A stretch of 27,699 nt of DNA, taken from contig JBEIJY010000033.1 of assembly GCA_040380025.1 (NCBI GenBank), forward strand, positions 1 to 27,699. The letters run 5' to 3'. The notes beneath the pieces were generated by a model. The model made no database searches, had not been told where the DNA came from, and worked only from the letters and a program-made list of their open reading frames with translations. Each line of letters opens with the position of its first letter. Position 1 is the stretch's first letter. Below are positions 1-20,063 of the stretch, in pieces. Made by a program: the position numbers and the translations under genes. The stretch is from Bdellovibrionales bacterium (GTDB lineage Bacteria > Bdellovibrionota > UBA1018 > CAIMNF01).

Positions 1-128
1 CGATCGTCCGAACAAGGCTCTTCGGAATAGAACCCCGGAAGAGTTTGCAAGAGAACAGGGGCTGATGCTATACGCATGAGTCTCTTAACTATGAGGATTC
101 GAGTCCTACGGTTCGTGGGGCAACGTCA
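1..128 (+). mobile_element. Right end of an IS3-family (IS407-group-like) insertion sequence, truncated by the window edge
   Basis: A transposase-like C-terminus at 2..79 is followed about 50 bp later by ...GTTCGTGGGGCAACGTCA ending at 128. This resembles IS3/IS407-group right inverted repeats, which end in GGGGCAACGTCA with the terminal CA. Confidence 0.75.
2..79 (+). CDS. IS3-family transposase OrfB (integrase core), C-terminal fragment
   Basis: Frame 2 reads DRPNKALRNRTPEEFAREQGLMLYA*, matching the N-x-x-RPH-x-(S/A)L-x-x-x-TP-x-EF tail of IS3 OrfB proteins. Not in the supplied ORF track. Confidence 0.75.
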   Translation, partial: DRPNKALRNRTPEEFAREQGLMLYA

Positions 129-346
129 GTCCGGTCTAAACAGGGGCTACTACAATCTTGACGCTGCCCAACGATTCGTTGGGCAATATAAAATCGAATC
201 GGCATCCGTTCTCCTGGTCGAAGTCCTTCTTGTGATCAAACAAAATCCCAAGATGATCCCCCTTCAGGCGCCTTCCACCGGGATTGATGACCCGTTCCCA
301 TCTTTGCCATTTACACCGCTCCCGTTCCTGCACAAAATTAAAGTTG

Positions 347-1510
347 ATGAACCCCGTGAATCCGGCACGCATTGAGGCCATCGACATTCTCCGCGGATCG
401 GCCCTGCTTGGCATTCTGGTCATGAACATCCAGGCGTTCGCGCTTCCGATCGCGGCCTACTTCAATCCGATGGTCTATGGCGACTTCTCGGGATCGGACC
501 GGGTCGCATGGCTCGTGACCCGCTTGTTCTTCGATGTGAAGTTCCTGAGCATCTTCTCGATGCTCTTCGGTGCCTCGCTGGTACTGGCCGGTGGCGGAGT
601 CCAAGCGAAAAAACGACTCGCCTGGCTCCTTGTTTTCGGTCTGATTCATGGATATTTCCTTTTCGTCGGCGACATTCTTTTCACCTATGCGATTGTCGGG
701 TTTTTGATCTTACCCGCCCGAACCTGGGCGATCAAAACCCAGCTTCGTGCGGGTCTGGCGCTTCTGATGGCTTCCCCGCTGACTCTTGCGGGATTGGGAA
801 TCTGCCACGAGTGGCTTCCGGATTCCTTGCAATCGGAGCTTTTTCGAACAGTCACGGACCTTGATGTCGCGCGCGATCTGGCCGTGTTTCGATCGGATTA
901 CCTCTCGCAACTCCCCCACCGCGCTGAACTCAGTTTCTCGAACCAGATTCACGGGACCGCTTTTGAGTCGGGCTGGCAAGCCGCAGGCTGTATGCTTCTT
1001 GGCATGGCGGCTGTGCGATCCGGCTTCTTTCAGAGGACCCACGAGTTCATCCGGGTCGCAGTGGGTTTCTTTTCGATCGGGATCCTGATGAGCGCGCTAG
1101 GGGTATTTTTCGCAATGAAAAACCAATTCGCGCCGCACGCATGGCTGATCGGTCAATCCCTGCACATGGCTGGCTCGGCCGGTATCGCCTTCGCGTGGCT
1201 CACAGGCCTGGTCGCACTCTCCCGAATGCGCGCACTACAGGGGATCTTCTCGAACATCGCTCGACTGGGAAAGGTTGGCTTCAGTGCGTACATTCTGCAA
1301 TCGATTGCAGGAATGTTTGTGTTTTGCGGCCAAGGCTTCGGGCAATACGGGTCGTGGAATCGCGTGGACCTGATCATTGCCGCAGTTCTTTTCTGGGTGT
1401 TCCAGATCTTTCTCGCGATGGCATGGACCTCGCGGTTTCGGGTGGGCCCCTTGGAGGCAGTATGGAGAGGGCTCTCGCGCGGGGATTTTTCGCTCGGGCG
1501 GATTTCATAG
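347..1510 (+). CDS. DUF418 (YeiB-like) inner membrane protein
   Basis: N-terminal RIEAIDILRGSALLGILVMNI, KFLSIFSMLFG, GDILFTYA and C-terminal W..RFRVGPLEAVWR motifs of the DUF418 family, with many hydrophobic segments. ATG 347 is preferred over ORF start 284. Confidence 0.9.
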   Translation: MNPVNPARIEAIDILRGSALLGILVMNIQAFALPIAAYFNPMVYGDFSGSDRVAWLVTRLFFDVKFLSIFSMLFGASLVLAGGGVQAKKRLAWLLVFGLIHGYFLFVGDILFTYAIVGFLILPARTWAIKTQLRAGLALLMASPLTLAGLGICHEWLPDSLQSELFRTVTDLDVARDLAVFRSDYLSQLPHRAELSFSNQIHGTAFESGWQAAGCMLLGMAAVRSGFFQRTHEFIRVAVGFFSIGILMSALGVFFAMKNQFAPHAWLIGQSLHMAGSAGIAFAWLTGLVALSRMRALQGIFSNIARLGKVGFSAYILQSIAGMFVFCGQGFGQYGSWNRVDLIIAAVLFWVFQIFLAMAWTSRFRVGPLEAVWRGLSRGDFSLGRIS

Positions 1511-1553
1511 CGGAAACCGTGATTCCTCGCCGCTCGTTCGGCACCCGATCCTT

Positions 1554-1940
1554 TCATTCCCGTTCGAGACCGGCCATTTCGCGGAGCATCTGGCGCCAGG
1601 CGGGGACTCCGCTTTCGAACATTTGCGTGAAGACCCTGTCGAGATTGAAATGAAAATCGAGGCCCGGATGGTTGAATATTTGATCACGCGAAAAACAGAC
1701 CGTAACTCCGGCTCCATTCGCAAAACGGATCAGGGATTCGAGTTTCGATGGAGCATGGGCCGAACGGGTCACCTGAGCAAAAACCCTCTTACCCTTCACT
1801 GATCTGCCGTGGAAGTGGGTCGAAGAAATAGCTTTCTTGTCTCGCAATATGGTGTACTCCAATCGGACCGCTGCCGGCGCGAGTTCGGATTTGTGACCAT
1901 TCCCTTTGTTTTGGATCCGTCCCATGAAAATCAGTCCCAT
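1554..1940 (-). CDS. Hypothetical protein (128 aa)
   Basis: Fills the gap downstream of the nuclease gene, and its ATG overlaps the nuclease stop (TGATG at 1942..1938). No recognisable motif. Confidence 0.3.
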   Translation of the reverse strand: MGLIFMGRIQNKGNGHKSELAPAAVRLEYTILRDKKAISSTHFHGRSVKGKRVFAQVTRSAHAPSKLESLIRFANGAGVTVCFSRDQIFNHPGLDFHFNLDRVFTQMFESGVPAWRQMLREMAGLERE

Positions 1941-2929
1941 CAGGTGCGAATCTCCTCCAAAAGGCGGCTTCCAACCCCCGGGTCGAGCCCGACCAGAGTC
2001 TGCCGGTAGATCAGATCGATGTTCATCGCCTTGATCTGTGCGACGCTGAGCGGTTGCCGTGCCCTTTTGAAGTCCCTGAGCCTCACAAAGAACTCATTGT
2101 CGGGAATTCCATCATGCTCCTTTTTTTCGACTTTGCCATCGACCACTCCGGTCGCAATGATTCCCTTGGAGTTCGAGTACAAAAACACACGATCCCCTTT
2201 TTGCAATTTTTCGATTTTGTACTTCCATGGATCATGGAATGCAGAAGCTTTTTGTTCCGAGAGCATCTCTTCCTCGTGATGATCCCCCGCGCTCCGGTTT
2301 GTGTTCAACAGCCAGGCTCCGGATTCCAATGTCTCACCGCACGGGAACTCGATGGCAAAATCCCCCGGAGAAGTTTCATACACATGGACAAGATGAAGCC
2401 GGAGGTCGATTCCCTTGTTTCTCCAGAAATCCACACTCGCGCGACACCCGGGATCGACTCCATCCGCAATCAATACGAGCGTTTGCTTTTGATTGAACTG
2501 CTCATCGGGAAGAGCCTTCCTCAGATCGAAATACCTTCGATGGGCCTCGGATAGCTCGAGAGTCTCCGTGGCTTCCCGGGGAGAGGAACGCCTCTTGAAC
2601 TTTTCATGAAACTGATTCAGCTGGGAGTACGAGAACCGCCCGAAAATACCGGCATACTTCAAAAGCTGCTCCACGGCGTCTTGAGATGCGGTCCATCGCT
2701 TCAGCTCGAAGATCCACGAATTCCCGTCTTTGTCGATCGCAAGAAGATCGGGCTCCGTCTGCCATTGATTCTCCTGGAACACCAAAAGAAGGTCTTCGCC
2801 GGTCACGGTTTCAAGGTTTCGAGCGATGAGATTCTCGAGGTCCTTCTCGAGCCACTGCATCTCTGCGAAATTGGTCTTTAGGGGAAAATAGATGAGATTC
2901 TTCGTATTCGAATCGATTCGGTAGAGCAT
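1940..2929 (-). CDS. NucS/EndoMS-like PD-(D/E)XK endonuclease fused to a C-terminal EVE/PUA-like domain (putative modification-dependent nuclease)
   Basis: EKDLENLI...EPDLLAIDKDGNSWIFELKR...EQLLKYA (PD..ELK plus QxxxY). The C-terminal WLLNTN...KLQKGDRVFLYSNSKGIIATGVV pattern is EVE-like. AAAGGA RBS upstream of ATG 2929. Confidence 0.75.
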   Translation of the reverse strand: MLYRIDSNTKNLIYFPLKTNFAEMQWLEKDLENLIARNLETVTGEDLLLVFQENQWQTEPDLLAIDKDGNSWIFELKRWTASQDAVEQLLKYAGIFGRFSYSQLNQFHEKFKRRSSPREATETLELSEAHRRYFDLRKALPDEQFNQKQTLVLIADGVDPGCRASVDFWRNKGIDLRLHLVHVYETSPGDFAIEFPCGETLESGAWLLNTNRSAGDHHEEEMLSEQKASAFHDPWKYKIEKLQKGDRVFLYSNSKGIIATGVVDGKVEKKEHDGIPDNEFFVRLRDFKRARQPLSVAQIKAMNIDLIYRQTLVGLDPGVGSRLLEEIRT

Positions 2930-3122
2930 GGGTTTCCTTTCGGGGAATGATGTCACGATCCAAAATGCACTGATTGCCGAAGCACACTACGGCACAGGGA
3001 TGACATCCGGGGACAAGGGAGGGAACCGCCACACCTCTCCTCCTGAACTAGCGCGTCAGACACCGAAGCGAATCCGTCCGATTCTTCCCTCCGCAAACCA
3101 CGACCGTGCTAGACTCATCCCC

Positions 3123-3650
3123 ATGTCCAAATGGATGGAGGCATTCCTCAGGGCCTGCAAACGACTTCCCGCCTACACCGAACGCGCGTGGTTCGCTCCA
3201 GCAGTGGCGGGCCTGGCATTCTTGGACTTCTTCATCTTCATTGTTCCGCTCGATGCGATCGTGATCGGCTCGTTTTTGGCCGCTCCTAGAAAACGATTCC
3301 GAATCGCGTGGATGACCGCCCTTGGCTCCACCCTGGGTGCGGTGGGATTTGCCCTTTTGATCCGGCACCTCGGGATGGGTTTTTTGAATGCAGTGACGCC
3401 CGGAATTCTAGAGGGAGATTGGGCCAGAACCTTGGGAATCTGGTTTCAGAGTTACGGATTTTGGGCTTTGGCGGGCAGTGCATCGATCCCGATCTACCAG
3501 CATCCGGTCGTGGCCGTGGCCGCGCTATCGGCTTTGCCGATGGTGTCGATTTTTTGGGGGATGCTCCTCGGGCGCGTGATCAAGTTCGGGACCTTTGCGA
3601 TCCTTTCGCACCATGCGCGCGTGAGGATGGAGCGTTGGTTCGGGGAGTAG
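3123..3650 (+). CDS. DedA/YqaA (VTT/SNARE-associated) family membrane protein
   Basis: AFLDFFIFIVPLDAIV, TALGSTLGA, SIPIY and LLGRVIKF motifs. ATG 3123 is preferred over the ORF start at 2928. Confidence 0.8.
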   Translation: MSKWMEAFLRACKRLPAYTERAWFAPAVAGLAFLDFFIFIVPLDAIVIGSFLAAPRKRFRIAWMTALGSTLGAVGFALLIRHLGMGFLNAVTPGILEGDWARTLGIWFQSYGFWALAGSASIPIYQHPVVAVAALSALPMVSIFWGMLLGRVIKFGTFAILSHHARVRMERWFGE

Positions 3651-3953
3651 GATGTCTGCCACTACCGGGAGTGTTTGATCTTCCCCGGGAACCAGCCTGA
3701 TCTGACAAGCAAGCCGTTCGCTTTTTCCCGCGTTCAGGCGCTCCAGAAAATCGACTTCAGACTCGTCCGGAGGAGCCAAGTGTTCGGCCTCGAGGACCTC
3801 CACTTTACAGCTTCCACATACGCCCTGCCCGCATCCAAATGTGATTGGAAGATCGATCTCATGCGCCACATCCATCAACGCAGATCCCTTACCCAGTTCG
3901 ACGAACAAATCCTGCTCTTCGAGTCTCAAGCGAATTCTGGATTTTTGATTCAT
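3525..3953 (-). CDS. 2Fe-2S ferredoxin
   Basis: FGCGQGVCGSCKVEV...ERLACQ cysteine motif; AGGAG RBS before ATG 3953. The 3' end overlaps the opposite-strand DedA gene by 126 bp. Confidence 0.88.
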   Translation of the reverse strand: MNQKSRIRLRLEEQDLFVELGKGSALMDVAHEIDLPITFGCGQGVCGSCKVEVLEAEHLAPPDESEVDFLERLNAGKSERLACQIRLVPGEDQTLPVVADILLPEPTLHPHARMVRKDRKGPELDHAPEEHPPKNRHHRQSR

Positions 3954-3966
3954 GAGGTTCTCCTGA

Positions 3967-5190
3967 TCAAGATTCAAGCGATGGCATTACGGTCCGGTAA
4001 CCGAAAATCCATTTTCCCGTGAGAATGGTCAAAACGCCCAAGGTTGCGGCAATCACGCTCATCAAAAGCAAGTTTTCCTGTGGGGTCATCACACCTGCAG
4101 TGAGCGAGACCACGAACCCGCTGATCGGAAGCGAGAAGTTGTTCACAAGAATGATCACCCCGGTCACTTTTCCGAAATCCTCCTTGGGAATGATTCTCGC
4201 CCGCAAGGAGCGTATGTATACATTGAACATTCCGTCGAACGCGAACAGGGTGCTCAGGCCCAAGCCAAACACAAGGATGTTTCCAGCAAGGGACCCGATC
4301 CACGCTCCCAGCACCATTCCAGCGAACGCCATGAGCCCGACCCCGTGAAGCCCGATCCTCCGCACCAATTCCGGGGCGGCCATGAAGGCCATGATGCAGG
4401 CAATGCCAGCGGCGGTTTGCATGAGTCCGAATGCGTGCTCCGGCTGCATCAAGCGTTGGGTAACGATCGCGGGGGCGACCACAAGGATCGTTCCGTAGAT
4501 CAAATTTACAAGCCAGGTCAGCGCGCAGAGCTGAAGAAGCATCTTTTTTTGGAATAGGATCGTAAAACCCCTTGTATAACTTTCGACGACAATCGCCTGA
4601 AAAGACTTCGGAGCGGGTGGCGTGAAATCCGCCTTGGGCAAAGACAAGGAGTTCAGAAAGCTTACTCCGAAGAAAACTGCACCGGATGCAATTACGGATC
4701 TCAGCTCGAAAAACGCCGCCGCCGCCCCGGCCAGAGCCGGCCCGAGGACCTGACTGAGCTGATCCACACCTTGAAGCCACGACTGTGCCTTGGGCATATC
4801 CTCTGCTGGCAACTGACGAGGAAGCGTGGCCTCCATTCCGATGAAGGCCAAGGAGTTCAAGATCGACATGCAAGCCATCATGCCGCTCAAGAGCCAGAAG
4901 GAACTGGAAGGGAAAACATGGATCGCTAAATAGGAACCAAGAATCAGGATCATTCTCCCCAAATCCGAGAAGCGATAGAGATTCCTGACATTGATCCGAT
5001 CTGCGAGACTGCCTGAGACCGGAAGGAAAAACAACCGGGGCAGCCACTCGATCGCAAACGCAAGTCCCGACCATTTCACACTGCCGGTGACCTTCAGAAT
5101 ATACAAAGGCACCGCAAACATCATGAACTGGTCGCCCAGTGCGGCCAACATTCTCGAGAGCATAAAACGATGAAGTCTGAAGCGTGACAT
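3967..5190 (-). CDS. MFS transporter (probable efflux/exporter)
   Basis: About 12 hydrophobic segments, GSLADRINVR motif-A-like loop, IPKEDFGKVTG loop; AGGAG RBS overlapping the upstream stop. Confidence 0.92.
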   Translation of the reverse strand: MSRFRLHRFMLSRMLAALGDQFMMFAVPLYILKVTGSVKWSGLAFAIEWLPRLFFLPVSGSLADRINVRNLYRFSDLGRMILILGSYLAIHVFPSSSFWLLSGMMACMSILNSLAFIGMEATLPRQLPAEDMPKAQSWLQGVDQLSQVLGPALAGAAAAFFELRSVIASGAVFFGVSFLNSLSLPKADFTPPAPKSFQAIVVESYTRGFTILFQKKMLLQLCALTWLVNLIYGTILVVAPAIVTQRLMQPEHAFGLMQTAAGIACIMAFMAAPELVRRIGLHGVGLMAFAGMVLGAWIGSLAGNILVFGLGLSTLFAFDGMFNVYIRSLRARIIPKEDFGKVTGVIILVNNFSLPISGFVVSLTAGVMTPQENLLLMSVIAATLGVLTILTGKWIFGYRTVMPSLES

Positions 5191-5198
5191 GAAGTCTC

Positions 5199-6383
5199 CT
5201 AATTTACGTTTTCGAAAATCTCTTGAATCAAAGTTTTCACCTCGAAACTGGTTTCCCCGCGGACCAGTCCCGCCAGAGGGACCTCCCTCGATTGGTAGGT
5301 GATATTGTTAAAAAGCGGAGCCCCGGCCGCCAATGCATTCCATCGGACCATCCCGGGATGGAACTTGTACGCATCGAATCCATGAACTCCTGAAAACGGG
5401 CCCGGAAGATGGTGCCCCGGGAACACAAACCATCCGAACTGGCTCTGGTACGGAGCCGACACCCTGATTGAAACAGGCTCATTGAGGTACAGCTTCAACT
5501 CCTCCGAGGGGAGATGAATTCCCGTGGCAAGTTCAAAGGTATCGACCACATCCCCTCCTCCCACTCTGGCTCCCACCTCAAGGAAAACAAGCTGGTCTCC
5601 CTTTTGAATCGCCTCCAGATGAAACGCACTGTTCTGGATCCCGACTGCGGAAATACACCGCTGGGCCCAATCCTGATGCTCGCTCCGATGCTCGATCTGA
5701 AACGAACCCAAAGGCTTTCCCCGCGCATAATCAAGACAAGTCCCGATGTATTGACTGGCGACAAAACACTGAATGACACCGTTGGAGACCAGGCCATCCA
5801 TATGAAGAATAGCCCCTTCGACATATTCCTCGAGTTCGAATTTTTCTGGATTCTTTCCGTGCGATCGATACACTTCGAGCCGAGCCAAGGCCTCTTCAAC
5901 AGTCCGATGCACAGTCACATCTTGCGAAGATGCTCCGTCAACGGGTTTCAAAACGACCTTTCCCTCCCAGAGTAGTTCCAAAGAACGACTGACCGCCTCA
6001 TCGGCACGAATCCAGCGGGGAGTTGCGATCCCATGGTCCTGAACCGCGCGCTTCATGGCGACTTTATTTCGGACTTTCTCGACATCCACAGGCCTAGGCC
6101 CCGGAACACCCAGAACCTCACGGATGATCGCCGCATCCATGAGTTCGTATTCCGAGACGGAAATCACCCGATCGAAGTTCTCGTTTCGGGGAATCACATC
6201 CAGAACCTCTCTTGCGGTTCTCTCCACTCCCTGTCGAACGAGTTTTTTGCAATTCAGCCCCGGGGGCAAATCCCCAATTCGCTCATGAAGGCCCACATAG
6301 GTGACCTCGTGCGTGTCGTGGTTGATCCCACGGTGATACTCGATTTTGTAATAGGGCACCCGATGAAGAACAAGGATTTTCAT
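5199..6383 (-). CDS. ATP-grasp domain protein (L-amino-acid ligase-like) #3
   Basis: RNKVAMK, VVLKPVDGASSQDV, LEEYVEG, AFHLE, FLEVGARVGGG. ATGA overlap with the upstream gene. Confidence 0.9.
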   Translation of the reverse strand: MKILVLHRVPYYKIEYHRGINHDTHEVTYVGLHERIGDLPPGLNCKKLVRQGVERTAREVLDVIPRNENFDRVISVSEYELMDAAIIREVLGVPGPRPVDVEKVRNKVAMKRAVQDHGIATPRWIRADEAVSRSLELLWEGKVVLKPVDGASSQDVTVHRTVEEALARLEVYRSHGKNPEKFELEEYVEGAILHMDGLVSNGVIQCFVASQYIGTCLDYARGKPLGSFQIEHRSEHQDWAQRCISAVGIQNSAFHLEAIQKGDQLVFLEVGARVGGGDVVDTFELATGIHLPSEELKLYLNEPVSIRVSAPYQSQFGWFVFPGHHLPGPFSGVHGFDAYKFHPGMVRWNALAAGAPLFNNITYQSREVPLAGLVRGETSFEVKTLIQEIFENVN

Positions 6384-7681
6384 GCCAGCTCCATTTCCGG
6401 AAAATGCATGTGTTCCCGCATGGACTCCTTGAATCTCTCCTCGAAGCGGCTTCCGATTTCCCGGATGTCCGCGAGGGGATCATCAGAAAACACGCAAATC
6501 TCGGCAATGAAACCCGAATTGTCCCTCGGTTCGCGATTCACGAGAGTTCCTCCCCTCTGGGTGAAGCGGAAGTCGCTCCACATCAGGCCTTTTGGAGAAT
6601 CCCTCAGAAGCTTCCGAAGCAACTCCCCGGAAAAGTTGGGGTCATCGATCGCAGGAGACAAAGTTCCATTGAAGGGCGCCGCCAGCTCGAGGATGGCCGC
6701 CACCCCCTTCGGGGCCGGAAGGGTCGTCGGGATTCCCTCACCCAACAGCTGGTCGATCCAAAGCTTGAAGAAATTCACCCCATAGACCTTTTCTGCAAGA
6801 TGCCAGATGCGCATTCCCGCCGGACGTCGGTTTGGCTCGATCACCGCTGATCTGGTGCCGGAGAAATCGAGCTTGATCTCGTTATGAAAGGGCCCGATTC
6901 GCTGGCCGACAAGCAGATTTGCGGCTCTCCCTGCGCGCTCAATGCTCTGAAGACGATCGGAGCTCAATCGAGCGGGAACGATCTGGCCCTTTTCGACAGG
7001 ATACCTCCCCGTTACGCTCATTTTTTCCGTGGCAAAAGTGAGATGGCCGATTCCATCGAAAGAGTACTCCCGATCAAATGGGATCAGCTCCTCACAGATC
7101 AATCCCTCCTTCAAATACATTTCGACTTCATCGAATGCAGCGCGCAGATCGCACCCCTTTTCAAGACGAAGCACTCCCCGATTGTTCCCTTCACAGGACG
7201 GCTTAAGCACAAATCCATTGGGGCACAGATCGGCAAATGCCTCGAGTTCCGTGCGTGTGCTTACCCTTGCAAAACGTGGCACGAAGATCTCCTGCGCCTC
7301 AAGATAGTGTCGCAAGCGGTCCTCGGCCTCTCGATAGCTCAACTTGGAATAGGCGTTTCGGGCAAGAAGAGCCGAGTCCGACTTCATCCCGAGATGCCCG
7401 GCAAGAGTCGCCCCGCTCACGACCCCATTGTCAGAGAACGGAAGAACGGCAGAAATCCCGGAACAATACGGCGCGAGGAATTGCAACGCTTTCGGAATGA
7501 AATCCGCCGCCCGGGGGTCGAGGTCGCCGATCACGGTCGCCACCTCGCGGTCGCAGGGCTGAGGATTCGGCCGAAGCAGGATGGTCTCTGCTTGATACCG
7601 GGATTTCGCATAATCCGTCATGAGTTTCACATCATGAAAGCGGGTAAGGTTGTAATCGACGATGACAAGGTACTTAGACAT
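6380..7681 (-). CDS. ATP-grasp domain protein (L-amino-acid ligase-like) #2
   Basis: FVLKPSCEGNNRGV, ICEELIPFDREYSFDG, GPFHNEIK, VIEPNRRPAG. GGAG RBS before ATG 7681, which overlaps the upstream gene by 8 nt. Confidence 0.88.
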   Translation of the reverse strand: MSKYLVIVDYNLTRFHDVKLMTDYAKSRYQAETILLRPNPQPCDREVATVIGDLDPRAADFIPKALQFLAPYCSGISAVLPFSDNGVVSGATLAGHLGMKSDSALLARNAYSKLSYREAEDRLRHYLEAQEIFVPRFARVSTRTELEAFADLCPNGFVLKPSCEGNNRGVLRLEKGCDLRAAFDEVEMYLKEGLICEELIPFDREYSFDGIGHLTFATEKMSVTGRYPVEKGQIVPARLSSDRLQSIERAGRAANLLVGQRIGPFHNEIKLDFSGTRSAVIEPNRRPAGMRIWHLAEKVYGVNFFKLWIDQLLGEGIPTTLPAPKGVAAILELAAPFNGTLSPAIDDPNFSGELLRKLLRDSPKGLMWSDFRFTQRGGTLVNREPRDNSGFIAEICVFSDDPLADIREIGSRFEERFKESMREHMHFPEMELA

Positions 7682-8978
7682 ATTCAATCTCCAGTGCTTT
7701 TTTTGAAGTTTCGGTAAAGGTTTGAATTTCATCCTTACGGAGGCGTCGGGGAAAACTCCAAAGGGCCTGCCCGAGAAATACCTCGCGCTCGGCATGCGGA
7801 ATCGGTTGTCCGGGCCGGAAATGGATTTTTAGAATATCGGGTTTTGAATGGGAGGATGGCCCGATTTTTCCGATGACTTTTCCGGGTGTCCCGAAAAACA
7901 CGCGAAACAGGGTTCGTACCTCAGAATTCCTGGATTCCATTTCCAGTTTCTCGAGCTTCTTCAGGAGTATTGACATCTCGCTTGCGTCGTGGACAAGAAG
8001 TGTCTCGATCCAGAGTCCCAGAAGCGAAATCCCCCGATGGCGCTGGTTGACGCTCTCCTTGATCAGCGCCCCTCCCACCCTCGGGTTGATCTCGATCAAC
8101 TCCCATCGATCCATTGCCGGATCCCATTTCGCTTCGACATGAAAAAGCCCCCTGTCGAGACCCATGGCTTTCAGGCACTCCCCGACAAACCGCATGCCGC
8201 GATCGGTGTTTCTTTTGGTGAGCGAAACCGGTGGCGACACGCACAGATTCTCAAGAGTCGTGGAGTTCGTCTCTTCCACATCCAGTTTCTCGTGAATTCC
8301 AAGAAAAAACGCCTTTCCGTCCAGGGCGATGGTCTCGAAACTGAACTCTTTTCCCGGAATGTAATCCTCCAGGATAAATTCCTGATTTTCCTGAAACACC
8401 CCGTCGTATTCGATGTCTTTTCCCATTTGCCTTCGGAGCTCGCGGAGGTTCTCCTTGGCCTTGGCGTTGAGCTTGAAGGTACCGTAGGAACCAAGCCCCC
8501 GTCGTGGTTTCACGAACCCGGGTTTCCCCTCATCCATCCATGAATCGAGAGTGCGTTCATTCGCCTCGACGGCATTGACGCCACTCAACCCCTTTCGCTT
8601 CAAACCCAGCCGGAAGGAAAGCTTGTCGATCGCTCCACCGATCGAACCCGGAGGAATGTCATTTCCCCCGAGCTGGGCGTTCCCAAAAGCCATCAGCTCC
8701 CGGTATCCTTCCCAGACCGAAACCACGGCTCTTGGGTTCAGGTTCTTCGCCGCAAACGCCTCGATCGCATTCCTCACATCAGCCAGGCACAATGACGGTT
8801 TTGAAGTCACAATGACATGCTCGCTGAGTTTTAAAATCGCCGGAATCCTCTCCTCGGAATTCTGCGGGATCGAGGAACTCAGGATCACCGGTATGATGTC
8901 GTTTTCCCGGCACCAAACGGCGATGTCCTCGAGAAACGAATATCCCTGATGACTCAGGATGAGGACGGTCTTCCTCAT
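7674..8978 (-). CDS. ATP-grasp domain protein (L-amino-acid ligase-like) #1
   Basis: DKLSFR, FVKPRRGLGSYG, LEDYIPGKEFSFE, GLFHVEAK, LIEINPRVGG. ATG 8978 forms an ATGA overlap with the oxidase stop. Confidence 0.9.
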   Translation of the reverse strand: MRKTVLILSHQGYSFLEDIAVWCRENDIIPVILSSSIPQNSEERIPAILKLSEHVIVTSKPSLCLADVRNAIEAFAAKNLNPRAVVSVWEGYRELMAFGNAQLGGNDIPPGSIGGAIDKLSFRLGLKRKGLSGVNAVEANERTLDSWMDEGKPGFVKPRRGLGSYGTFKLNAKAKENLRELRRQMGKDIEYDGVFQENQEFILEDYIPGKEFSFETIALDGKAFFLGIHEKLDVEETNSTTLENLCVSPPVSLTKRNTDRGMRFVGECLKAMGLDRGLFHVEAKWDPAMDRWELIEINPRVGGALIKESVNQRHRGISLLGLWIETLLVHDASEMSILLKKLEKLEMESRNSEVRTLFRVFFGTPGKVIGKIGPSSHSKPDILKIHFRPGQPIPHAEREVFLGQALWSFPRRLRKDEIQTFTETSKKALEIEYV

Positions 8979-9724
8979 ACCGTACCCTCGACTTTCGAGA
9001 GAACCTGGTCCTCGTGAATCTCGCGAAAAAACATGGCCAGAATGCTCTGATGCTCGTCGATGTATTTTGTGAGACTCCGTACATCCGCCTCGGAGCGAAT
9101 GAGATGGCGGATTGCGTTCCATACCTCTCCCGGGTGATCGTCATTGAGGTCGGTGTGCATGTGCGAGATCTGGCCGGAGACTGCCTTCTCTCCCAGGCGC
9201 GATTTCAACCCGCTGATTTTCTTCGGATCGAGTTTCACATTCACGTATTCCACAAGATACGAATAAACGAGCACGCCCAACGGACCTTCATGGTCCAGAA
9301 GATAAGAAAAGAACCCGGTAAGAAGCTTGGTGGACAGATACGGCTCCGTCGAAAGAATGGTCTCGATGGATGCGCCCGTTTTTTTTGCATCCTCGATGAA
9401 GAGTCGGTCGTGAATCATCTCTTCATACTCGTAGTGCGCCCAGATTTGAGCGGCATCCGGAGAGATTTTGGCCACTTCCGCCAGTGTTCTCGATTCGGAG
9501 ACCCGAAGAAGCCGGATCCTCAAAGCTGTCTCGATCAGAAACCGCTGATAATACGCGGTATGAATTTCACCTTTCTCAAAGTGGGTGGCGAAAGGAACCG
9601 TCGCATTCCATTCTTCGATTTTATGGTCGATATAACGATCGATTTTTCTACGAAGCTCATTCGAATCTTCGATCGTAAGAAAAGGTTTTTGACGTTCCAT
9701 TCCGGTGTGTTTGCATCGATTCAT
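8975..9724 (-). CDS. Heme-oxygenase-like dimetal oxidase (HDO; TenA/PqqC/CADD fold, iron-containing redox enzyme)
   Basis: All-helical-looking 249-aa protein with YEEMIHDRLFIEDAKKTG (EExxH), YSYLVE and HMHTDLNDDH candidate metal-ligand motifs. AAGGGGAG RBS before ATG 9724. Confidence 0.8.
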   Translation of the reverse strand: MNRCKHTGMERQKPFLTIEDSNELRRKIDRYIDHKIEEWNATVPFATHFEKGEIHTAYYQRFLIETALRIRLLRVSESRTLAEVAKISPDAAQIWAHYEYEEMIHDRLFIEDAKKTGASIETILSTEPYLSTKLLTGFFSYLLDHEGPLGVLVYSYLVEYVNVKLDPKKISGLKSRLGEKAVSGQISHMHTDLNDDHPGEVWNAIRHLIRSEADVRSLTKYIDEHQSILAMFFREIHEDQVLSKVEGTV

Positions 9725-9773
9725 TTTGGTTCTCCCCTTGATTTGTGATTGCTTATGGAAGCGAAATGGCGAC

Positions 9774-9790
9774 ATGCACTCTCTGTGCCA
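9774..9790 (-). promoter_or_regulatory. sigma54 (RpoN) -24/-12 promoter for the oxidase/ATP-grasp operon
   Basis: Minus strand reads TGGCACAGAGAGTGCAT: GG-N10-GC spacing with TGGCAC and TGCA. Predicted +1 is near 9764, about 40 nt before ATG 9724. Confidence 0.7.
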
Positions 9791-10155
9791 TCATTCGCGA
9801 GCCTCTTGTTTTCGGATTCGGGGGCGGAAAATTGGGCTCAATTTCGCAGTTCCACCGAGCGAAGCCGGAGATCCGTGCGGATTTTTAAACAATCACTGTA
9901 GATCGCGGGAGAGTTCCAGGCCGGACAAAGCCAGAGGACTGCTGAAGCGAGGGTCGAGACGTCCCATTTTCCGGTCATAATTGTCACGGAGAAGGGACGC
10001 CATTCGTTATATTATTGAAATTTAATAAATCGCGGGCGTTGCGATCCGGTACGAACCAGCCCTCATGTTGATTGAGTGATGACTCAGGAGATTCATCGGT
10101 TGGCAAGCCCCTCGATCGGGCCCAGAACGCAACGACCGCCGCCCGGGACTTCCAC

Positions 10156-10176
10156 AAATGCAATATGTTTGCATTT
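10156..10176 (+). promoter_or_regulatory. Palindromic operator AAATGCAA-N5-TTGCATTT (Zur/Fur-family-like) overlapping a predicted -35
   Basis: Perfect 8-5-8 inverted repeat. Its right arm supplies TTGCAT, followed 17 nt later by TATCAC (10192..10197). Identical arms recur at 12161..12181. Confidence 0.7.
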
Positions 10177-10205
10177 ATGAAAAACTCCGTGTATCACCAA
10201 GGAAC

Positions 10206-11243
10206 ATGCAAAATCGTGAAAAAGAGATCCTGTTCCTGTCTCTCGAGGACGTTCTGGCTTCCGGCGGCGCTGACATGGCCCTTGCCGCTCAGGATGTCGA
10301 CCGCGGCTTCGCCCTTTTGCTTCAGGGTCGCATTCAACAGCCCCACAAGACGACGCTGAAGCCGGCCGGAACCAACGAGCAAGGCACCGGGCTTGTGAAC
10401 TTCCTGCCCTCGTACGTGAACTCCGGAGAGCAATCCATTTTCGGCCTGAAGGCGCTGGGCGCAATGCCCTCGAATGTGGCCAAGGGAATGCCCCGCGCGA
10501 CCGGTTTGATTCTTCTTTTCGACCCCGAAACGAAATCCCCTCTTTGCGTCATGGATGCACAAGTCATCTCGGCCACTCGAACCGGCGCAGTTTCGATGGT
10601 CGCGGCGCGAAAGCTCGTGCGCGAGGATGAGGAAGCAGTCGGGCTCATCGGATCGGGCGTGAACATGCGGACCCAGCTTCTGGGATTGAAACTCGCGCTT
10701 CCGCGTCTGAAATACGCGCGGGTGTATTCGCGCGGGGAATCACGCGAGATCTTCGCGCGCGAGATGTCCGAGAAACTCGGAATGGACATTGTTCCGGTCG
10801 ACTCCGCCCGGGCCGCCAGCGAGGGAATGAAGACGATCGTCACCTGCCTTGCGAATGTGAGTTCTCCGGTGCTCATGGATCGACACGTGGCCGAATCGGG
10901 CGTAACGGTCTTCAACATTGGCTGCTACGAGAGCGAGGCAGTTCTCCTCAATCGCATGGACCGGGTGATTGCGGACATCTGGGAACAAGGAAAACACCGT
11001 GGCGTTCAGACCCATGCCATTGCTGTCCGGGACGGAGTCATTCCCGAAACGAAGATCGAGAATCTCGGTCCCATTCTGATCGGCGAGAAAGCCGGAAGAA
11101 CCCGTTCGGAAGAAAACATTTTCTTTTGTCCGACAGGGCTCGGGTTTCAGGATGCCCTGGTGGCAATGCGTGTGTACCAAACAGCGATAAGCCAGGGCCG
11201 CGGAACCTCCCTTCGCCTGTGGAATGATTCAAAATGGATCTGA
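10206..11243 (+). CDS. Ornithine cyclodeaminase/mu-crystallin family protein (SbnB-like fold)
   Basis: ILFLSLEDV, GLKALGAMPSNVAKGMPRATGLILLFDPET, ISATRTGAVS, Rossmann VGLIGSG, GLGFQDALVA. AAGGA precedes ATG 10206. Confidence 0.9.
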   Translation: MQNREKEILFLSLEDVLASGGADMALAAQDVDRGFALLLQGRIQQPHKTTLKPAGTNEQGTGLVNFLPSYVNSGEQSIFGLKALGAMPSNVAKGMPRATGLILLFDPETKSPLCVMDAQVISATRTGAVSMVAARKLVREDEEAVGLIGSGVNMRTQLLGLKLALPRLKYARVYSRGESREIFAREMSEKLGMDIVPVDSARAASEGMKTIVTCLANVSSPVLMDRHVAESGVTVFNIGCYESEAVLLNRMDRVIADIWEQGKHRGVQTHAIAVRDGVIPETKIENLGPILIGEKAGRTRSEENIFFCPTGLGFQDALVAMRVYQTAISQGRGTSLRLWNDSKWI

Positions 11244-12124
11244 TCAAATCCCTGCGCGCGCGCACCTCATCGATCCCGCAAGAGACTATCACCTTTGGCT
11301 GGGTGGCGCTTGCTCTTCTCGCCTCGTCCATTGAGCCTCTGATCGTGAAGCTTGGCTACCGGACCGGTTCGGATCCGGTCTCGCTTCTGGCGTGGAAGCT
11401 CATTTTCGGGGGGATATTCATGCTTCCGCTCATGGTCCGGAACCGGGACCTTCCGAAACAAAAAATCCCGGTCCTTCTTTGGATCGGTGCCTGCTTCTCA
11501 CTGCACTATCTTGCCGTGTTTTATGCCCTCACCCGGACCTCGGCTTCGATCCTGGTCACTTTTCTTGCCAGCACACCGGCCCTGGTGGCCCTCATGAACC
11601 AAATGAAAATGCGTGAAAAAGCCGGCAGGAAATTCTGGTTCTGGTGGGCGGCCTGCTTTTTCGGAGTCTTGCTGAGCCTGGACCTCTTCGGAACCGCCGG
11701 AGTCCGTCTCGATGGACCGGGAATCGCCCTTTGCGGGACTGCGGTGGCGCTCTCCGCACTCTACCGGGTTTCGATTGATCATTTCACGCGCGGACTGGAA
11801 CCGCTCACGGTATCGGGCGCCATCTTCGCGATCGCGGGTATTGTCGGCCTTGCGCTGATTCCCGTGGCACCCCCGATGAATTCACAGGGCTACTTCTCGG
11901 CACTCTGGATGGGACTTGCCGGCGCCGCCGCGAACATCGCCTTCGTCCAGGCGCTCAAATCGCTGGGCTCCACCCGCATCTCGGTTCTGACCCTTCTTCA
12001 GCGTCCGCTCGTGATTTTTCTTGCGGCAATCCTGCTCGAGGAACCGCTCGGAGCCCTGCAGGTCGCGGGAGTCGCCCTCGTGATTCTGGGGTCGCGTTAT
12101 GCCAAGGTCGAAAAAAGGGTTTGA
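11234..12124 (+). CDS. DMT/EamA family transporter
   Basis: About 10 hydrophobic segments in two repeats; FYALTRTSAS, ALKSLGSTRISVLTLLQRP, LLEEPL. Overlaps the upstream gene by 10 nt. Confidence 0.9.
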   Translation: MDLIKSLRARTSSIPQETITFGWVALALLASSIEPLIVKLGYRTGSDPVSLLAWKLIFGGIFMLPLMVRNRDLPKQKIPVLLWIGACFSLHYLAVFYALTRTSASILVTFLASTPALVALMNQMKMREKAGRKFWFWWAACFFGVLLSLDLFGTAGVRLDGPGIALCGTAVALSALYRVSIDHFTRGLEPLTVSGAIFAIAGIVGLALIPVAPPMNSQGYFSALWMGLAGAAANIAFVQALKSLGSTRISVLTLLQRPLVIFLAAILLEEPLGALQVAGVALVILGSRYAKVEKRV

Positions 12125-12160
12125 TTCGTGCCCTTTTTCATCGTTCGAAACCCTGAAATC

Positions 12161-12181
12161 AAATGCAATTTACTTGCATTT
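12161..12181 (+). promoter_or_regulatory. Second AAATGCAA-N5-TTGCATTT operator, upstream of the ABC operon
   Basis: Reads AAATGCAATTTACTTGCATTT and ends 28 nt before GTG 12209; the first copy ends 30 nt before its ATG. Confidence 0.7.
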
Positions 12182-12208
12182 AAGCTGCGATCAAGGTAGG
12201 CAAATCTT

Positions 12209-12925
12209 GTGATCCAAATTCAATCTCTCTCCAAACAATACCCGTCCCGGGGAGCCACGGTCAGCGCTGTTTCTGATGTCTCCCTCTCGATTCCGAAGGG
12301 CGAGATCTTCTGCCTTCTCGGGGGAAATGGCGCCGGAAAATCCACCCTCGTGAACCTGCTCATGGGATTCCTTGAGCCGAGTTCCGGAGATGCACGGATC
12401 GACGGCGAATCGATTCGGGATTCCATTCCGGCCATCCGGAAAAAAATCACCTACATTCCCGATCAGGTGAATTTGTATCCGGAACTGAGCGGAATCGAGA
12501 ATCTGGAATATTTTTTGAGCCTTTCGTCACCCGAACTCGCCCGCGACCGCGACTTGTTGCGACGCGCGCTTCTTGCCGCCGGACTCGACGAGAAGGCGCT
12601 TACCCGCGCGACCGGGGAATATTCGAAGGGCATGCGCCAAAAAGTGGGGGTTGCCCTTTCGATCGCGAAGAAATCGAAAATTCTCATTCTCGATGAACCG
12701 ACCACCGGGCTTGACCCTGAGGCCTCGAACGACTTTGCCCGTCTTCTGACCTCACGCTCGCGCGAAGAGGGAGTTACGATTTTCATGGTCACCCATGACC
12801 TTTTCCGTGCGAAGCAATCCGGCGACCGAATCGGAATTATGAAATCCGGCCGCCTTGTCTATGACTCCTCCACCCGGGATTTGTCTCATGAATCGCTTGA
12901 AAAAATTTATCTCGATTATATTTAA
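12209..12925 (+). CDS. ABC transporter ATP-binding protein (ABC-2/exporter-like)
   Basis: Walker A GGNGAGKS, signature YSKGMRQK, Walker B LILDEPTTGLD, H-loop MVTHD; GTG start. Confidence 0.96.
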   Translation: MIQIQSLSKQYPSRGATVSAVSDVSLSIPKGEIFCLLGGNGAGKSTLVNLLMGFLEPSSGDARIDGESIRDSIPAIRKKITYIPDQVNLYPELSGIENLEYFLSLSSPELARDRDLLRRALLAAGLDEKALTRATGEYSKGMRQKVGVALSIAKKSKILILDEPTTGLDPEASNDFARLLTSRSREEGVTIFMVTHDLFRAKQSGDRIGIMKSGRLVYDSSTRDLSHESLEKIYLDYI

Positions 12926-14345
12926 TACTGACTGGCGCCGGCACCCCGGATCGGTCATTGCCCGCTCGGAGTTCCGGCAAATGCTCCGGGGGTGGCTTCC
13001 GCTCACACTCGTCGCGTTTCTTTGGTTTTTGATCGCGGTTTGCGGGGTTCTGGAAGCGGGACGGAACCGCAATCTCTCTGAACAGCACCAGACCGTGGCG
13101 CAACTGGAGCGTGAGGCATGGACCGGGCAACCCGACCGGAATCCCCACCGGGCGACCCACTTCGGCCAATTCGCATTCCGCCCCCCTGCTCCGCTCGGGC
13201 CATTCGAGCGGGGAATCCACCCGTATGCCGGATCGGGAGTGTACCTTGAGTCGCACGTTCGGCATGAGCCGGTGCTTGCGCCTTACCTCGGCACCCCTCC
13301 GTCCTCGCGAATGGGTTTTTTTGACATCAATGCCATTTTGAATCTGATCCTTCCCCTTGCGCTTGCGTTCCTCGGGGCACGTCGCATTCCTTACGAAGCG
13401 AGGTCGGGGCTTCTTCGGATCCTCGAGAGCGAAGGCGCGAGCCGATCGGCCATTCTGGTCGGGAAGACCCTAGGGCTTTGGGGAGTTGCCTTTTTTTGCT
13501 TTGATCTGCCCCTGTTTTTGATCGGAGTCGGATGGTTCTCGTGGTTTCTTCCCGCAATGATCCCGCACCTTTTCTTTTTGCTCGTGGTCTGCGCCCTCTA
13601 TCACTTGACCATTTCGGCCGTGATCATCGGGGTCTCCTCGTACGGCCGATCAGAGCAAGGATCCGTGGCACTCACACTCGGAGTGCTCCTTGGACTGAAT
13701 CTGTTTCTTCCGAAGGCACTACCACCCTTGTCTGAGCTTCTTGTTCAGGAAAACGGCGTCGGAGAGCTCAGACGAAACCTCTATACCATGCTGTCTCAGG
13801 CTCCCGACGGACACCGCCCGGGAGGAGCGGAGTTCGAAAAAATCAAGGAATCACTCCTGAATCAGTACGGGGCGAAGGCGCTCGAGGAACTACCCATCAA
13901 CTATGAGGGCGTGATTCTTCAGGTCGCAGAAGAGAAGTCATCCGCCATCTTTCAGCAGGTTTTCAGGGATCAATGGGACCGATTCCTGAGACAGGAAGCG
14001 CTGACCCTTGCCCTCGGCGCGATCGCGCCCGCGTTGACCCAGCGGGTGCTGGCGATGCATTTTTCGCAAACGCACCTTCGCGATCAGATCCACTTCGAAG
14101 ACCGTGTCGAGAAACACCGCTCGGATTTCGTGCGCGAGCTGAATCAGATGGTGACTGCGATTCCCCACAAGGAGAGAAAAACAAAGAAACTCCCCTCGAG
14201 CACCTGGGAGCAAATTCCGTCCTTCCGATTTGAGTCCCTGTCCTTTTTATCGGCGCTCCGGAACGCGTATCTTCCCTTTTTGATCGCGGCGCTTCAGTGT
14301 TTCCTTGCGCTACGATTCGTCGCGAGAAGGAGGCTCCCGGGATGA
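12888..14345 (+). CDS. ABC-2 type permease, DUF3526 family
   Basis: IARSEFRQMLR N-terminus, PDRNPHRATHFGQFAF and YLESH motifs, E..SGLLRIL EAA-like loop, multiple TM segments. Exact start uncertain. Confidence 0.8.
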   Translation: MNRLKKFISIIFNTDWRRHPGSVIARSEFRQMLRGWLPLTLVAFLWFLIAVCGVLEAGRNRNLSEQHQTVAQLEREAWTGQPDRNPHRATHFGQFAFRPPAPLGPFERGIHPYAGSGVYLESHVRHEPVLAPYLGTPPSSRMGFFDINAILNLILPLALAFLGARRIPYEARSGLLRILESEGASRSAILVGKTLGLWGVAFFCFDLPLFLIGVGWFSWFLPAMIPHLFFLLVVCALYHLTISAVIIGVSSYGRSEQGSVALTLGVLLGLNLFLPKALPPLSELLVQENGVGELRRNLYTMLSQAPDGHRPGGAEFEKIKESLLNQYGAKALEELPINYEGVILQVAEEKSSAIFQQVFRDQWDRFLRQEALTLALGAIAPALTQRVLAMHFSQTHLRDQIHFEDRVEKHRSDFVRELNQMVTAIPHKERKTKKLPSSTWEQIPSFRFESLSFLSALRNAYLPFLIAALQCFLALRFVARRRLPG

Positions 14346-17307: not shown

Positions 17308-18816
17308 ATGAGCACACGATTTCTTTTTTCCGCCGCATGCGCGATCTTGTTCCTCACTGGCTGCGAATCCGCCAAACGAGCGGCGAATTTGATCGAGACC
17401 CTGTCCCCTCCGCTCGCCGCGAACAACGTTCCTCTTTCTTTGGCTTCGGTTTCTCCCGCCCGAAGCGGACCGGGTGCCAGGATCACTCTGTCGGGAACGG
17501 GGTTTCAAACCGGAGCGACTGTGCAAATCGGAGGGATGAATGCGCAAGTGGATTCTTTGACCTCGACGAGCATCGTGGTTCGGGTTCCCGATCTTCCGGA
17601 AGGGAACACGGACATCCGGGTCATCAACCCGGATCTGGCAGAAGCACAACTCCCCTCGTCGGCTCTTCATGTTTCGTGGGTAACGCAAATCGCAACCTCG
17701 TCCACCCATAGCTGCACTGTGGTGAATCAGGAAATTCAGTGCTGGGGGCAAAACACTCATGGACAACTCGGGAACGGAGTGCCATTTGCCTCCGATCCGA
17801 ATCCGAATCCAGCGGTGTTCGTCCCTCTGCCCGTGAAAGTTCTCGGAATCAACGGCGGAGTCACGGGAATCGCTCTTGGCATGTCCCACACTTGTGCAAT
17901 TGTCAACGGACTCGTGAAATGCTGGGGGCGCGCCAGCAGTGGTCAACTCGGCAACGATCCTGTTGGGAACGACAATTTTCCTCCATCCACTCCTGTCACG
18001 GTTCTGGGGCTTGCCAACGTGACCTCGATCGCCGCTGCCATGAGCACCACGTGCGCCGTGGCGAATGGTGGCGTTTATTGCTGGGGAGGAGGAAGCCTTC
18101 TTGGGAACGGAGGGGATTCGGGGAATGAGTCAGCCAGAGTTCCCGTGGCTCTGACTGCGTTAAGTTCGGGGGTTCAGAAAATCGTATCCGGCGGAGGCAT
18201 GAGTTTCTGGTTCTGCGCTCTCGTGTCCGGAGCGGTTTGGTGTTGGGGGCAGAACGGAATGCTCGGCGACGGCTCAATTGATCAAACCCTCATGACGCCC
18301 TTCGAGGTTCCGGGCGTCATGGAAAGCTTTGTTCCCGTTCCGGTGACCGGTCTTCAGGCGGGAGTGACGGACCTTTGGCTGGGCGGGAATAACGCTTGTG
18401 CAAAAGTGGGAGCTCAAGTGAAGTGTTGGGGCTCCGGCGGATTCCACATGCTTCAGAACGGCTCCACGGATGACGTGTACATTGCCCGAACCGCAACAGG
18501 CCTCCCGTCCCTTCCGAACGCATTGGCTTTTGGTGGAGTCCACGGCTGCGGTGTTTTCTCGGGAGCCGCAAAATGTTGGGGGGCGAATGTGGAAGGCAGT
18601 CTCGGAAACGGGTCTCCTCCAGCTTCGATTTCTTCGGTTCCGGTCGATGTGACCGGCCTCTCCTCCGGCGTGCAAGCTATTCAGAGCAGTTACAACCATG
18701 TTTGTGCGATCAAGAATGGCGGGCTTTACTGCTGGGGATTGGGGAGTAATTCAGGCTTGGGCAACGGATCCCTCGGTACGGCCTTTACCCCGGTGGTTCC
18801 ATTGCTGCAGTGGTGA
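17308..18816 (+). CDS. Lipoprotein with IPT/TIG domain and RCC1/BLIP-II-like beta-propeller repeats
   Basis: Lipobox LFLTGC; VSPARSGPGARITLSGTGF (IPT/TIG); repeated H(T/S)CA...(K/Y)CWG.N..GQLG.G units; AAGGA RBS. Confidence 0.88.
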   Translation: MSTRFLFSAACAILFLTGCESAKRAANLIETLSPPLAANNVPLSLASVSPARSGPGARITLSGTGFQTGATVQIGGMNAQVDSLTSTSIVVRVPDLPEGNTDIRVINPDLAEAQLPSSALHVSWVTQIATSSTHSCTVVNQEIQCWGQNTHGQLGNGVPFASDPNPNPAVFVPLPVKVLGINGGVTGIALGMSHTCAIVNGLVKCWGRASSGQLGNDPVGNDNFPPSTPVTVLGLANVTSIAAAMSTTCAVANGGVYCWGGGSLLGNGGDSGNESARVPVALTALSSGVQKIVSGGGMSFWFCALVSGAVWCWGQNGMLGDGSIDQTLMTPFEVPGVMESFVPVPVTGLQAGVTDLWLGGNNACAKVGAQVKCWGSGGFHMLQNGSTDDVYIARTATGLPSLPNALAFGGVHGCGVFSGAAKCWGANVEGSLGNGSPPASISSVPVDVTGLSSGVQAIQSSYNHVCAIKNGGLYCWGLGSNSGLGNGSLGTAFTPVVPLLQW

Positions 18817-18956
18817 AGCCCATTCCAGGATCGCGCCCGTGTCACCCCTGACCCGATTCTGAAGATCCGGTCATTCCCGACACATCTTCCGGAGCACCCC
18901 CCGCTTTGAGATCATGGAGTAAAGGAGAAATGCTGACCCGGATGATGAAACATCGT

Positions 18957-18983
18957 TAACGTTTTGATCGGTTTCCCCGAAGA
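18957..18983 (+). promoter_or_regulatory. Possible sigma28 (FliA)-type promoter
   Basis: TAAC-N15-CCCGAAGA versus consensus TAAA-N15-GCCGATAA; partial match only. Confidence 0.35.
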
Positions 18984-18986
18984 GCT

Positions 18987-20060: not shown

Positions 20061-20063
20061 GCC

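Follow-up and report, generated by a model that had tools for sequence, protein, structure and literature searches.

The window, by which we mean the whole stretch of DNA analyzed here (27,699 nt of contig JBEIJY010000033.1, assembly GCA_040380025.1, from a Bdellovibrionales bacterium), carries six co-oriented open reading frames (ORFs) on its minus strand. In order of transcription, they encode a heme-oxygenase-like dimetal oxidase (HDO) of the MboA/VarO branch (9724-8975, 249 aa); three ATP-grasp ligases, here G1 (8978-7674, 434 aa; ATP-grasp_4, E 4e-14), G2 (7681-6380, 433 aa) and the MboD-type G3 (6383-5199, 394 aa), the latter two also matching the ATP-grasp family; a major facilitator superfamily (MFS) transporter of the H+ antiporter (MefA/EntS-like) type, likely an exporter (5190-3967, 407 aa; MFS_1, E 7e-25; TIGR00900, E 1e-36, below its cut-off); and a [2Fe-2S] ferredoxin, the likely electron donor of the HDO (3953-3525, 142 aa; Fer2, E 5e-12; cysteines C41, C46, C49 and C83). 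The successive junctions measure -4 (ATGA), -8, -4 (ATGA), +8 and +13 nt, and purine-rich sequence resembling a ribosome-binding site was seen in the inspected stretches 5' of the six genes. These coordinates and junctions bear out an initial annotation of the locus, which had described six co-oriented, tightly joined genes at 3525..9790. The genes stand as described, but the upper edge does not. The longest HDO ORF begins at 9775, but the HDO most likely starts at 9724, because its orthologues begin at the equivalent position; N2 and R3 are invariant in 21/21 aligned rows. The extent of the cluster is best read as 3525 (or about 3654) to 9724. Counts in a promoter and terminator scan were no higher than in shuffled sequence, and Rfam gave zero matches across window positions 1-14000.

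The six-gene arrangement is not due to chance, because the gene order recurs in other phyla. A genome scan confirmed 104 relatives, and the best 80 of these 104 loci, at 57-64% identity, were used for the counts given below (43 Pseudomonadota, 31 Actinomycetota, 4 Cyanobacteriota, 1 Gemmatimonadota and 1 unassigned). Five of the six genes are common to bacteria of four phyla as one cassette. Of the 73 loci with 4.3 kb or more of downstream sequence, 72 have G1, G2 and G3 together with the HDO (the exception is locus L062), and the ligase order is nearly always the same. The ferredoxin is present in 77/80 loci, and two of the three misses begin at a contig edge. The MFS type of the window was found at 33% identity or above in 8/80 loci, other MFS or EamA types occur in many of the remaining loci, and the transporter is exchangeable between loci.

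The HDO was compared with solved structures by sequence and by fold. In a Pfam/NCBIfam scan it matched Haem_oxygenas_2 at E of about 8e-4, under the curated cut-off. Only two distinct PDB sequences matched: MboA (9YPI, E 2e-18; profile 7e-24), the best match and nearest solved relative, and the uncharacterized 3DDE. The AlphaFold2 (AF2) model (pLDDT 89.4, pTM 0.87) is a heme-oxygenase-like helical bundle that superimposes on 3DDE (TM 0.76, Z 23.1, rmsd 2.5 A, 226 aligned) and CADD (Z 21.3); the fold search matched 3DDE, CADD, UndA and BesC, with UndA, BesC, HrmI and PolF at similar scores. The fold-search rows listed do not include MboA, which may postdate that structure library. As modeled, the first gene product has the HDO fold. 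Its predicted metal ligands E102, H105, E159, H188, D192 and H197 align with E86, H89, E143, H172, D176 and H181 of MboA, so that the ligands of the dimetal site expected for the first gene are present in the alignment, and all six are identical in 80/80 GTDB loci (a 3-His/3-carboxylate set, E-H-E-H-D/E-H). D106 and Y98, which align with the switching ligand D90 and the proposed base Y82 of MboA, are likewise invariant. Furthermore, 4/6 orthologue accessions tested are present in the supplementary HDO list of Badding and colleagues (PMC13185094), and each of the four matched 6.0 of 6 ligand positions against 7/7 reference structures in the published structural filter; the dimetal site is therefore supported.

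The substrate pocket departs from that of MboA. The residues that hold the guanidinium group in MboA, N57/D61/D139, align with L73/E77/S155 of the HDO, and this is so in 80/80 loci. Four locus matches from two MboA-bearing genomes show the N/D/D pocket, whereas 17 key positions of the HDO, including a pocket of L73/R74/E77/S155, are identical in 80/80 GTDB loci, a combination seen neither in MboA nor in any other fetched subgroup. Leu73 occurs together with Glu77 in only two of the near-full-length family representatives aligned. The 17 invariant positions and the distinct pocket argue that the HDO forms a separate, strongly constrained subfamily, presumably with a substrate of its own. With 88 representatives at E<=1e-10 the family is a small one, the named homologues among the best 120 of 385 protein matches are called only "hypothetical", "iron-containing redox enzyme" or PqqC-like, and the ESM Atlas returned generic names only.

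All three ligases are nearest to L-amino-acid ligases by sequence. The closest PDB sequence to G1 is the L-amino acid ligase BL00235, and the G2 profile matches BL00235 and BacD. The AF2 model of G2 (pLDDT 93), the one ligase for which the three-domain ATP-grasp fold was shown by a model, has BacD and BL00235 as top folds and RizA at rank 7, at 12-18% structural identity. The initial annotation had called the ligases sequence-divergent, and they are: G1 and G2 share 26% identity over 304 columns, and none of the three matches another in its own genome at E 1e-3. The Lys, Glu and E-x-x-x-R motifs, whose roles we take to be those in BacD-type ligases, are kept in the alignments of G1 (71 rows), G2 (72 rows) and G3, which span 71-73 rows between them. 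Because these ATP- and Mg-binding-type motifs are conserved, none of the three ligases looks dead. The nearest sequence and fold matches come from BacD in bacilysin, RizA in rhizocticin, DdaF in dapdiamide biosynthesis and BL00235. Antimetabolite pathways built on L-amino acid ligases follow a logic of carrier peptide and warhead, and in the bacilysin, rhizocticin and dapdiamide types the warhead is made first and ligated afterwards. The logic of MboA differs, as it oxidizes the finished peptide.

For comparison with the mangotoxin (mbo) ligases, mbo homologues were fetched from two Pseudomonas genomes and a quick IQ-TREE analysis was run. G3 is 30% identical to the MboD homologue over 345 columns (pairwise E 1e-38) and falls with it in a shared clade (SH-aLRT 99). 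G1 and G2 each form their own clade, on stems so long that the tree program flagged them. The G2 clade joins MboC with support of 84, on a long branch in this unfinished tree. Among the loci examined, G2 was found only in the three-ligase cluster type, whereas G1 also occurs in two-ligase sister clusters. Since those clusters have G1- and G3-type ligases and no G2, G2 is an addition that marks the three-ligase type.

The ferredoxin raises a question of where its gene ends. Its four cysteines are invariant in 11/11 rows, the domain ends near residue 100 (about 3654), and 10 aligned orthologues are about 95-110 aa long. The last 42 codons (3525-3653) run antisense over the end of a neighboring plus-strand gene (3123-3650). 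The tail has the same letters in the probable source assembly, with no gaps or indel, although this comparison is not independent. The DNA likeness to four close relatives ends at 3650, the stop codon of this left neighbor, and insertion may therefore have cost the ferredoxin its own stop at the junction.

Several lines of evidence indicate that the six genes are an acquired accessory cluster that has spread horizontally, and we claim no donor. First, the distribution is patchy: an HDO orthologue was found in 0/16 genomes searched of the same genus, in 1/40 relatives (G025, at 69% identity and with the same gene order), and in 11/401 Pseudomonas and 9/401 Streptomyces genomes, centre genomes included. 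Second, Streptomyces copies nest among proteobacterial ones in a midpoint-rooted concatenated tree of 73 loci and the window, 8/81 loci being left out for short or missing genes. Third, GC content at third codon positions places the HDO and G3 at the 5th-6th percentile of the 1285 long ORFs of the genome, with G1, G2 and the MFS gene at the 16th-28th, and the likeness to relatives is lost at the stop of the left neighbor. The gene that follows this neighbor in four relatives has no close copy in the window genome, and no terminal repeats marking an element were seen around the cluster. A patchy, mobile distribution is typical of competition metabolites. Also beside the cluster lies a low-GC (0.517) gene for a NucS-C-like nuclease domain (1940-2929), which was possibly acquired as well.

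The closest characterized system is the mangotoxin operon mboABCDEF of Pseudomonas syringae, as described in PMC13185094 and in the portions available of PMC13725569 and PMC3355146. MboA was reported in 2026 as the first alkyne-making HDO and the first with a dedicated redox partner, and MboD adds an N-terminal Leu to Ala-Arg in this pathway (PMC13185094). Both clusters begin with an MboA-branch HDO and combine it with free-standing ATP-grasp ligases, an electron partner and an exporter, and the window cluster keeps the metal ligands, the D90 and Y82 equivalents and one MboD-type ligase (G3). The differences are as follows. The window cluster has three ligases rather than two, none of them a clear MboC orthologue; a free-standing ferredoxin where mbo has the fused FAD/NAD(P)H/[2Fe-2S] reductase MboB; an MFS transporter, in this copy, instead of EamA; and a type that extends over four phyla. 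No deiminase/amidinotransferase in the manner of MboE, a peptidyl-arginine deiminase, was found among the window ORFs or the recurrent accessory families scanned. Because pocket, reductase, deiminase and ligase number all differ, the window cluster is best regarded as working like the mangotoxin pathway, by analogy, without being a member of it.

Two other systems were considered. The Pantoea PNP-2 cluster was rejected, as its genes, according to the part of PMC13684122 available, are an N-acetyltransferase, a serine hydrolase, an MFS transporter, an AurF-type N-oxygenase, a ferredoxin reductase and one ATP-grasp enzyme. VarO of the thiovarsolin pathway is about 30% identical to MboA (PMC13185094) and, as far as the available part of PMC6511847 describes it, is a heme-oxygenase-like enzyme whose reaction is the desaturation of one residue in a short peptide; its cluster, which includes an ATP-grasp gene, makes a peptide synthesized by the ribosome and modified after its translation (a RiPP). 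The initial annotation had not recognized the gene set as a characterized pathway, and no full-length match to a characterized cluster turned up; the literature searched, which left most subscription papers outside, held no characterization of the six-gene set.

Taken together, the initial idea of a short peptide made independently of nonribosomal peptide synthetases, bearing an oxidatively modified residue and served by a ferredoxin partner and an exporter, is supported, and it is sharpened by the MboA/VarO placement and the MboD-like G3. On balance we think it probable that this horizontally spread operon makes and exports a short nonribosomal peptide by mangotoxin-type logic, the HDO desaturating a C-terminal residue that is probably not Arg. 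The steps of this scheme differ in strength. G1, G2 and G3 would very probably each make a single amide bond, using free amino acids and ATP, with the MboD-like G3 adding the N-terminal residue, which gives up to a tetrapeptide and the up to three amide bonds suggested at the outset. The tri- or tetrapeptide would then, rather probably, be held at the diiron site by its C-terminal carboxylate, as in MboA, where O2-dependent C-H abstraction with Y98 as base may turn the side chain into an alkene or, with a further turnover, an alkyne. The ferredoxin is likely to re-reduce the iron pair, the task of MboB; actinobacterial copies would bring an FNR-like reductase for this, and the window genome would borrow one from the host. 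An FNR/TrxB-like flavoprotein is encoded in 31/80 loci, namely 30 of the 31 actinobacterial loci and one other, and one query each found no close FNR-like, PvdN-like or LLM homologue (see below) in the window genome. Finally, it seems reasonably probable that the MFS transporter exports the peptide, which would be trimmed afterwards and act as an antimetabolite on competitors.

As to the residue attacked, the acid kept at E77 hints at a side chain with an amine, for instance Lys or Orn, an assignment we rate as possible but somewhat short of even. MboA also oxidizes Leu-Ala-Lys to a four-electron product, according to the part of PMC13725569 available, so the chemistry of the scaffold allows a Lys-type substrate; together with E77 this is a weak pointer toward an amine side chain.

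A number of observations weigh against this scheme. The HDO is only 25% identical to the MboA homologue fetched from genome data, and HDOs switch reaction easily. D106 is common across the wider family, and Y98 is kept in most of it and hence does not discriminate reaction types within it. All three guanidinium-binding positions are changed, so the substrate of MboA cannot be transferred to the HDO. The term "desaturase" is anchored by two characterized members only, MboA and VarO, of which MboA is the one in the alignment. The order of ligation is not fixed by G1 and G2, which sit on long stems and are about equally distant from MboC (27% each, over 217 and 273 columns). In place of a fused reductase of MboB type, electrons would come from a free ferredoxin of about 100 aa, whose profile matches MboB across the Cys motif alone (probability 1.6%). 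The recurrent gene families showed no duplicated target gene of the self-resistance kind that would hint at a mode of action. Prediction of an HDO-ferredoxin complex (score 0.01, mark 0.32) gave no answer and is evidence neither way.

The same peptide pathway could instead use the HDO for another reaction, namely N-oxygenation of an amine side chain, hydroxylation, or oxidative decarboxylation/C-C cleavage that turns the C-terminal residue into an enamide or terminal alkene. This we consider unlikely, though several points speak for it: the HDO family catalyzes all of these reactions (PMC13108848), the pocket is distinct from that of MboA, the folds of UndA, BesC, HrmI and PolF match at similar scores, and the N-oxygenases SznF and RohS likewise come with ferredoxin-like genes, as the available text of PMC13725569 has it. 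By sequence, however, the HDO matches MboA and 3DDE only, and not HrmI, RohS, SznF, BesC or UndA, even by profile at E<=1. In addition, a separate HrmI-like HDO is added in 12/80 loci, suggesting that the core HDO is not the N-oxygenase. Desaturation is preferred because both characterized members of the branch, MboA and VarO, desaturate peptide-bound residues, and because loci with an N-oxygenase-like enzyme add this separate HDO.

The VarO precedent also bears on whether the peptide is ribosomal, with the ligases cross-linking or extending a precursor on which the HDO acts as VarO does. The RiPP context of this other characterized branch member, which includes an ATP-grasp gene (PMC6511847, as far as available), speaks for such a pathway, but the thiovarsolin enzyme has an Arg substrate and works alongside YcaO/TfuA, and no precursor was found at the window cluster. 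A survey of 772 small ORFs (12-90 aa) surrounding 82 loci gave no precursor family that reached beyond 4 loci or beyond a single phylum, although very short or non-ATG precursors could escape this search. The ligases match L-amino-acid ligases and MboD, and no graspetide-type model was among their NCBIfam matches. A RiPP origin is thus very improbable, and we retain the ligase-made peptide.

Around the conserved core, the 80 loci carry three kinds of accessory module: a PvdN-like pyridoxal phosphate (PLP) enzyme exported by the twin-arginine (Tat) system in 34 loci (with DUF885 in 13 of these), an SsuD-like luciferase-like monooxygenase (LLM) in 16, and the HrmI-like HDO with a PLP decarboxylase in 12 (with a carbamoyltransferase in 6). 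The three never occur together in the 80 loci and each recurs on separate branches of the core tree, a co-occurrence count limited by kinship and by 10-kb flanks. The window, G025 and locus L076 form a clade with none of the three. The window copy looks like the minimal core pathway, because no accessory module lies at the locus and no close PvdN-like, LLM or FNR-like homologue was found in the genome.

These modules also raise the possibility that the product is a metallophore or a signal and not an antimetabolite. The PvdN-like enzymes resemble a pyoverdine tailoring enzyme, the HrmI-like N-oxygenase with PLP decarboxylase resembles hydroxamate logic, and the window has a Zur-like palindrome in the intergenic region between divergent genes. 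Against this, none of 34 long ORFs from 43 Gram-negative loci encodes a TonB-dependent receptor (at least 560 aa, composition-filtered, 8/42 left out, 10 kb flanks), and the palindrome appears to belong elsewhere. This 17-bp palindrome, of ATGCAA-N5-TTGCAT type, is perfect at three places in the genome: at window positions 10155-10177, 31 nt before the OCD gene start compared with 434 nt from the HDO start; at 12160-12182, 29 nt before a DUF3526 ABC operon; and on another contig (G000:C31:19198, in L177) before a gene for a TonB-dependent receptor. It also precedes an OCD homologue in metagenome contig L135, which has no cluster gene in its 2.2 kb. The motif resembles the Desulfovibrio Zur box, judging from the part of PMC545781 available, and the sites are likely to constitute a small zinc regulon. 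A metallophore or signal is therefore improbable, and an antimetabolite remains the function we favor.

The OCD and EamA genes (10206-12124) fall within the stretch 3525..12124 that the initial annotation had proposed for expression, which is too wide. As parts of the cluster they are rejected, since they occur in 0/80 cluster loci and the pair is found elsewhere without the cluster. Nine of the 12 OCD-bearing metagenome loci were scanned, several of them short; none of the nine gave an HDO, ligase, MFS or ferredoxin match, and an EamA partner was seen in 4. In 4 metagenome contigs, an OCD/mu-crystallin-family gene is paired with an EamA exporter at 61-65% and 40-47% identity, respectively, and the OCD of the window was not found in 40 relatives. 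Judged by their upstream motif and occurrence, OCD and EamA are best read as a separate, probably zinc-regulated unit, and the Zur-like box would fit an opine-type zincophore module. At the third palindrome, the gene for the TonB-dependent receptor (L177:4199-6244) appears as two ORFs, one of 451 aa with the plug and one of 189 aa with part of the barrel, and may be split or broken. Farther along, window positions 17308-27699 encode an RCC1-repeat/TIG protein, a LysM protein and two large proteins with Ig-like repeats, with surface or adhesion functions unrelated to the cluster.

Related clusters show how far the type varies. The two-ligase sister clusters (Burkholderia sp. FERM BP-3421 p1, Burkholderia sp. 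RPE67 p1 and Streptomyces griseocarneus) have an HDO 47-50% identical to that of the window and the G1- and G3-type ligases, and the RPE67 cluster also has a ferredoxin, an MFS transporter and an LLM. They differ in lacking G2, in a pocket with H66, S73 and Q or H at 77, and in extra AroA-like, PhyH, DgcN-like and HisC-like genes that vary by locus. The idea that they make the same warhead was dropped, as the pocket differs. Among such sisters, L118, L119 and L096 carry AroA/EPSP-synthase-like, PhyH dioxygenase, DgcN-like DUF1611, HisC-like aminotransferase and PhzF-like isomerase genes in varying combinations; in L118 and L119, which have the AroA-like copy, it may act as an enolpyruvyl transferase or be a target made resistant. 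Another MboA-family subgroup (L097, L161-L173; 37-41% identity) has a K73/D77 pocket and is common in Streptomyces, and in L097 the neighbors of the HDO include a fatty acyl-AMP ligase and a class III aminotransferase, and the locus gave no ATP-grasp match. On the symbiosis plasmid pBPHY02 of Paraburkholderia phymatum STM815 (L120:7935-11185), the MboA-family HDO BPHY_RS38115 and two ATP-grasp ligases lie between nifA and nodB. This HDO keeps an MboA-like N/N/D pocket, and the locus reads as a mangotoxin-like pathway; the HDO and one ligase are up-regulated in nifA-mutant nodules, according to the part of PMC8305402 available.

The pairing of HDO and ATP-grasp as a general kind is already published and actively mined, with at least 25 HDO/ATP-grasp cluster types found by the screen in PMC13185094. 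The present type may already be catalogued as an orphan, because four orthologues stand in the published HDO screening list. In that context, the cassette is a small, soluble, five-enzyme relative of the MboA pathway that differs in its invariant pocket, adds a ligase and makes do with a minimal ferredoxin. Two questions thereby become testable: whether alkyne-forming desaturation is general in this HDO branch, and what re-reduces HDOs inside cells; the window copy, carrying no accessory module, defines the core pathway. A bolder proposal, which we hold to be doubtful, is that the HDO is a second natural acetylenase, driven by a free ferredoxin and placing a triple bond in a non-arginine (Lys/Orn-type) residue of a three-ligase tetrapeptide, a scaffold that hosts would diversify or disarm with the three mutually exclusive modules. 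If true, this would define a new antimetabolite family, and one found in more of the sampled Pseudomonas species than mangotoxin (11 of 401 against 2, searched with a profile that was built on the window family). The compound is probably widespread and antibiotic-like, and as many cultured Streptomyces, Pseudomonas, Burkholderiales and cyanobacteria carry the cassette, this candidate antibiotic or ecological toxin is within reach.

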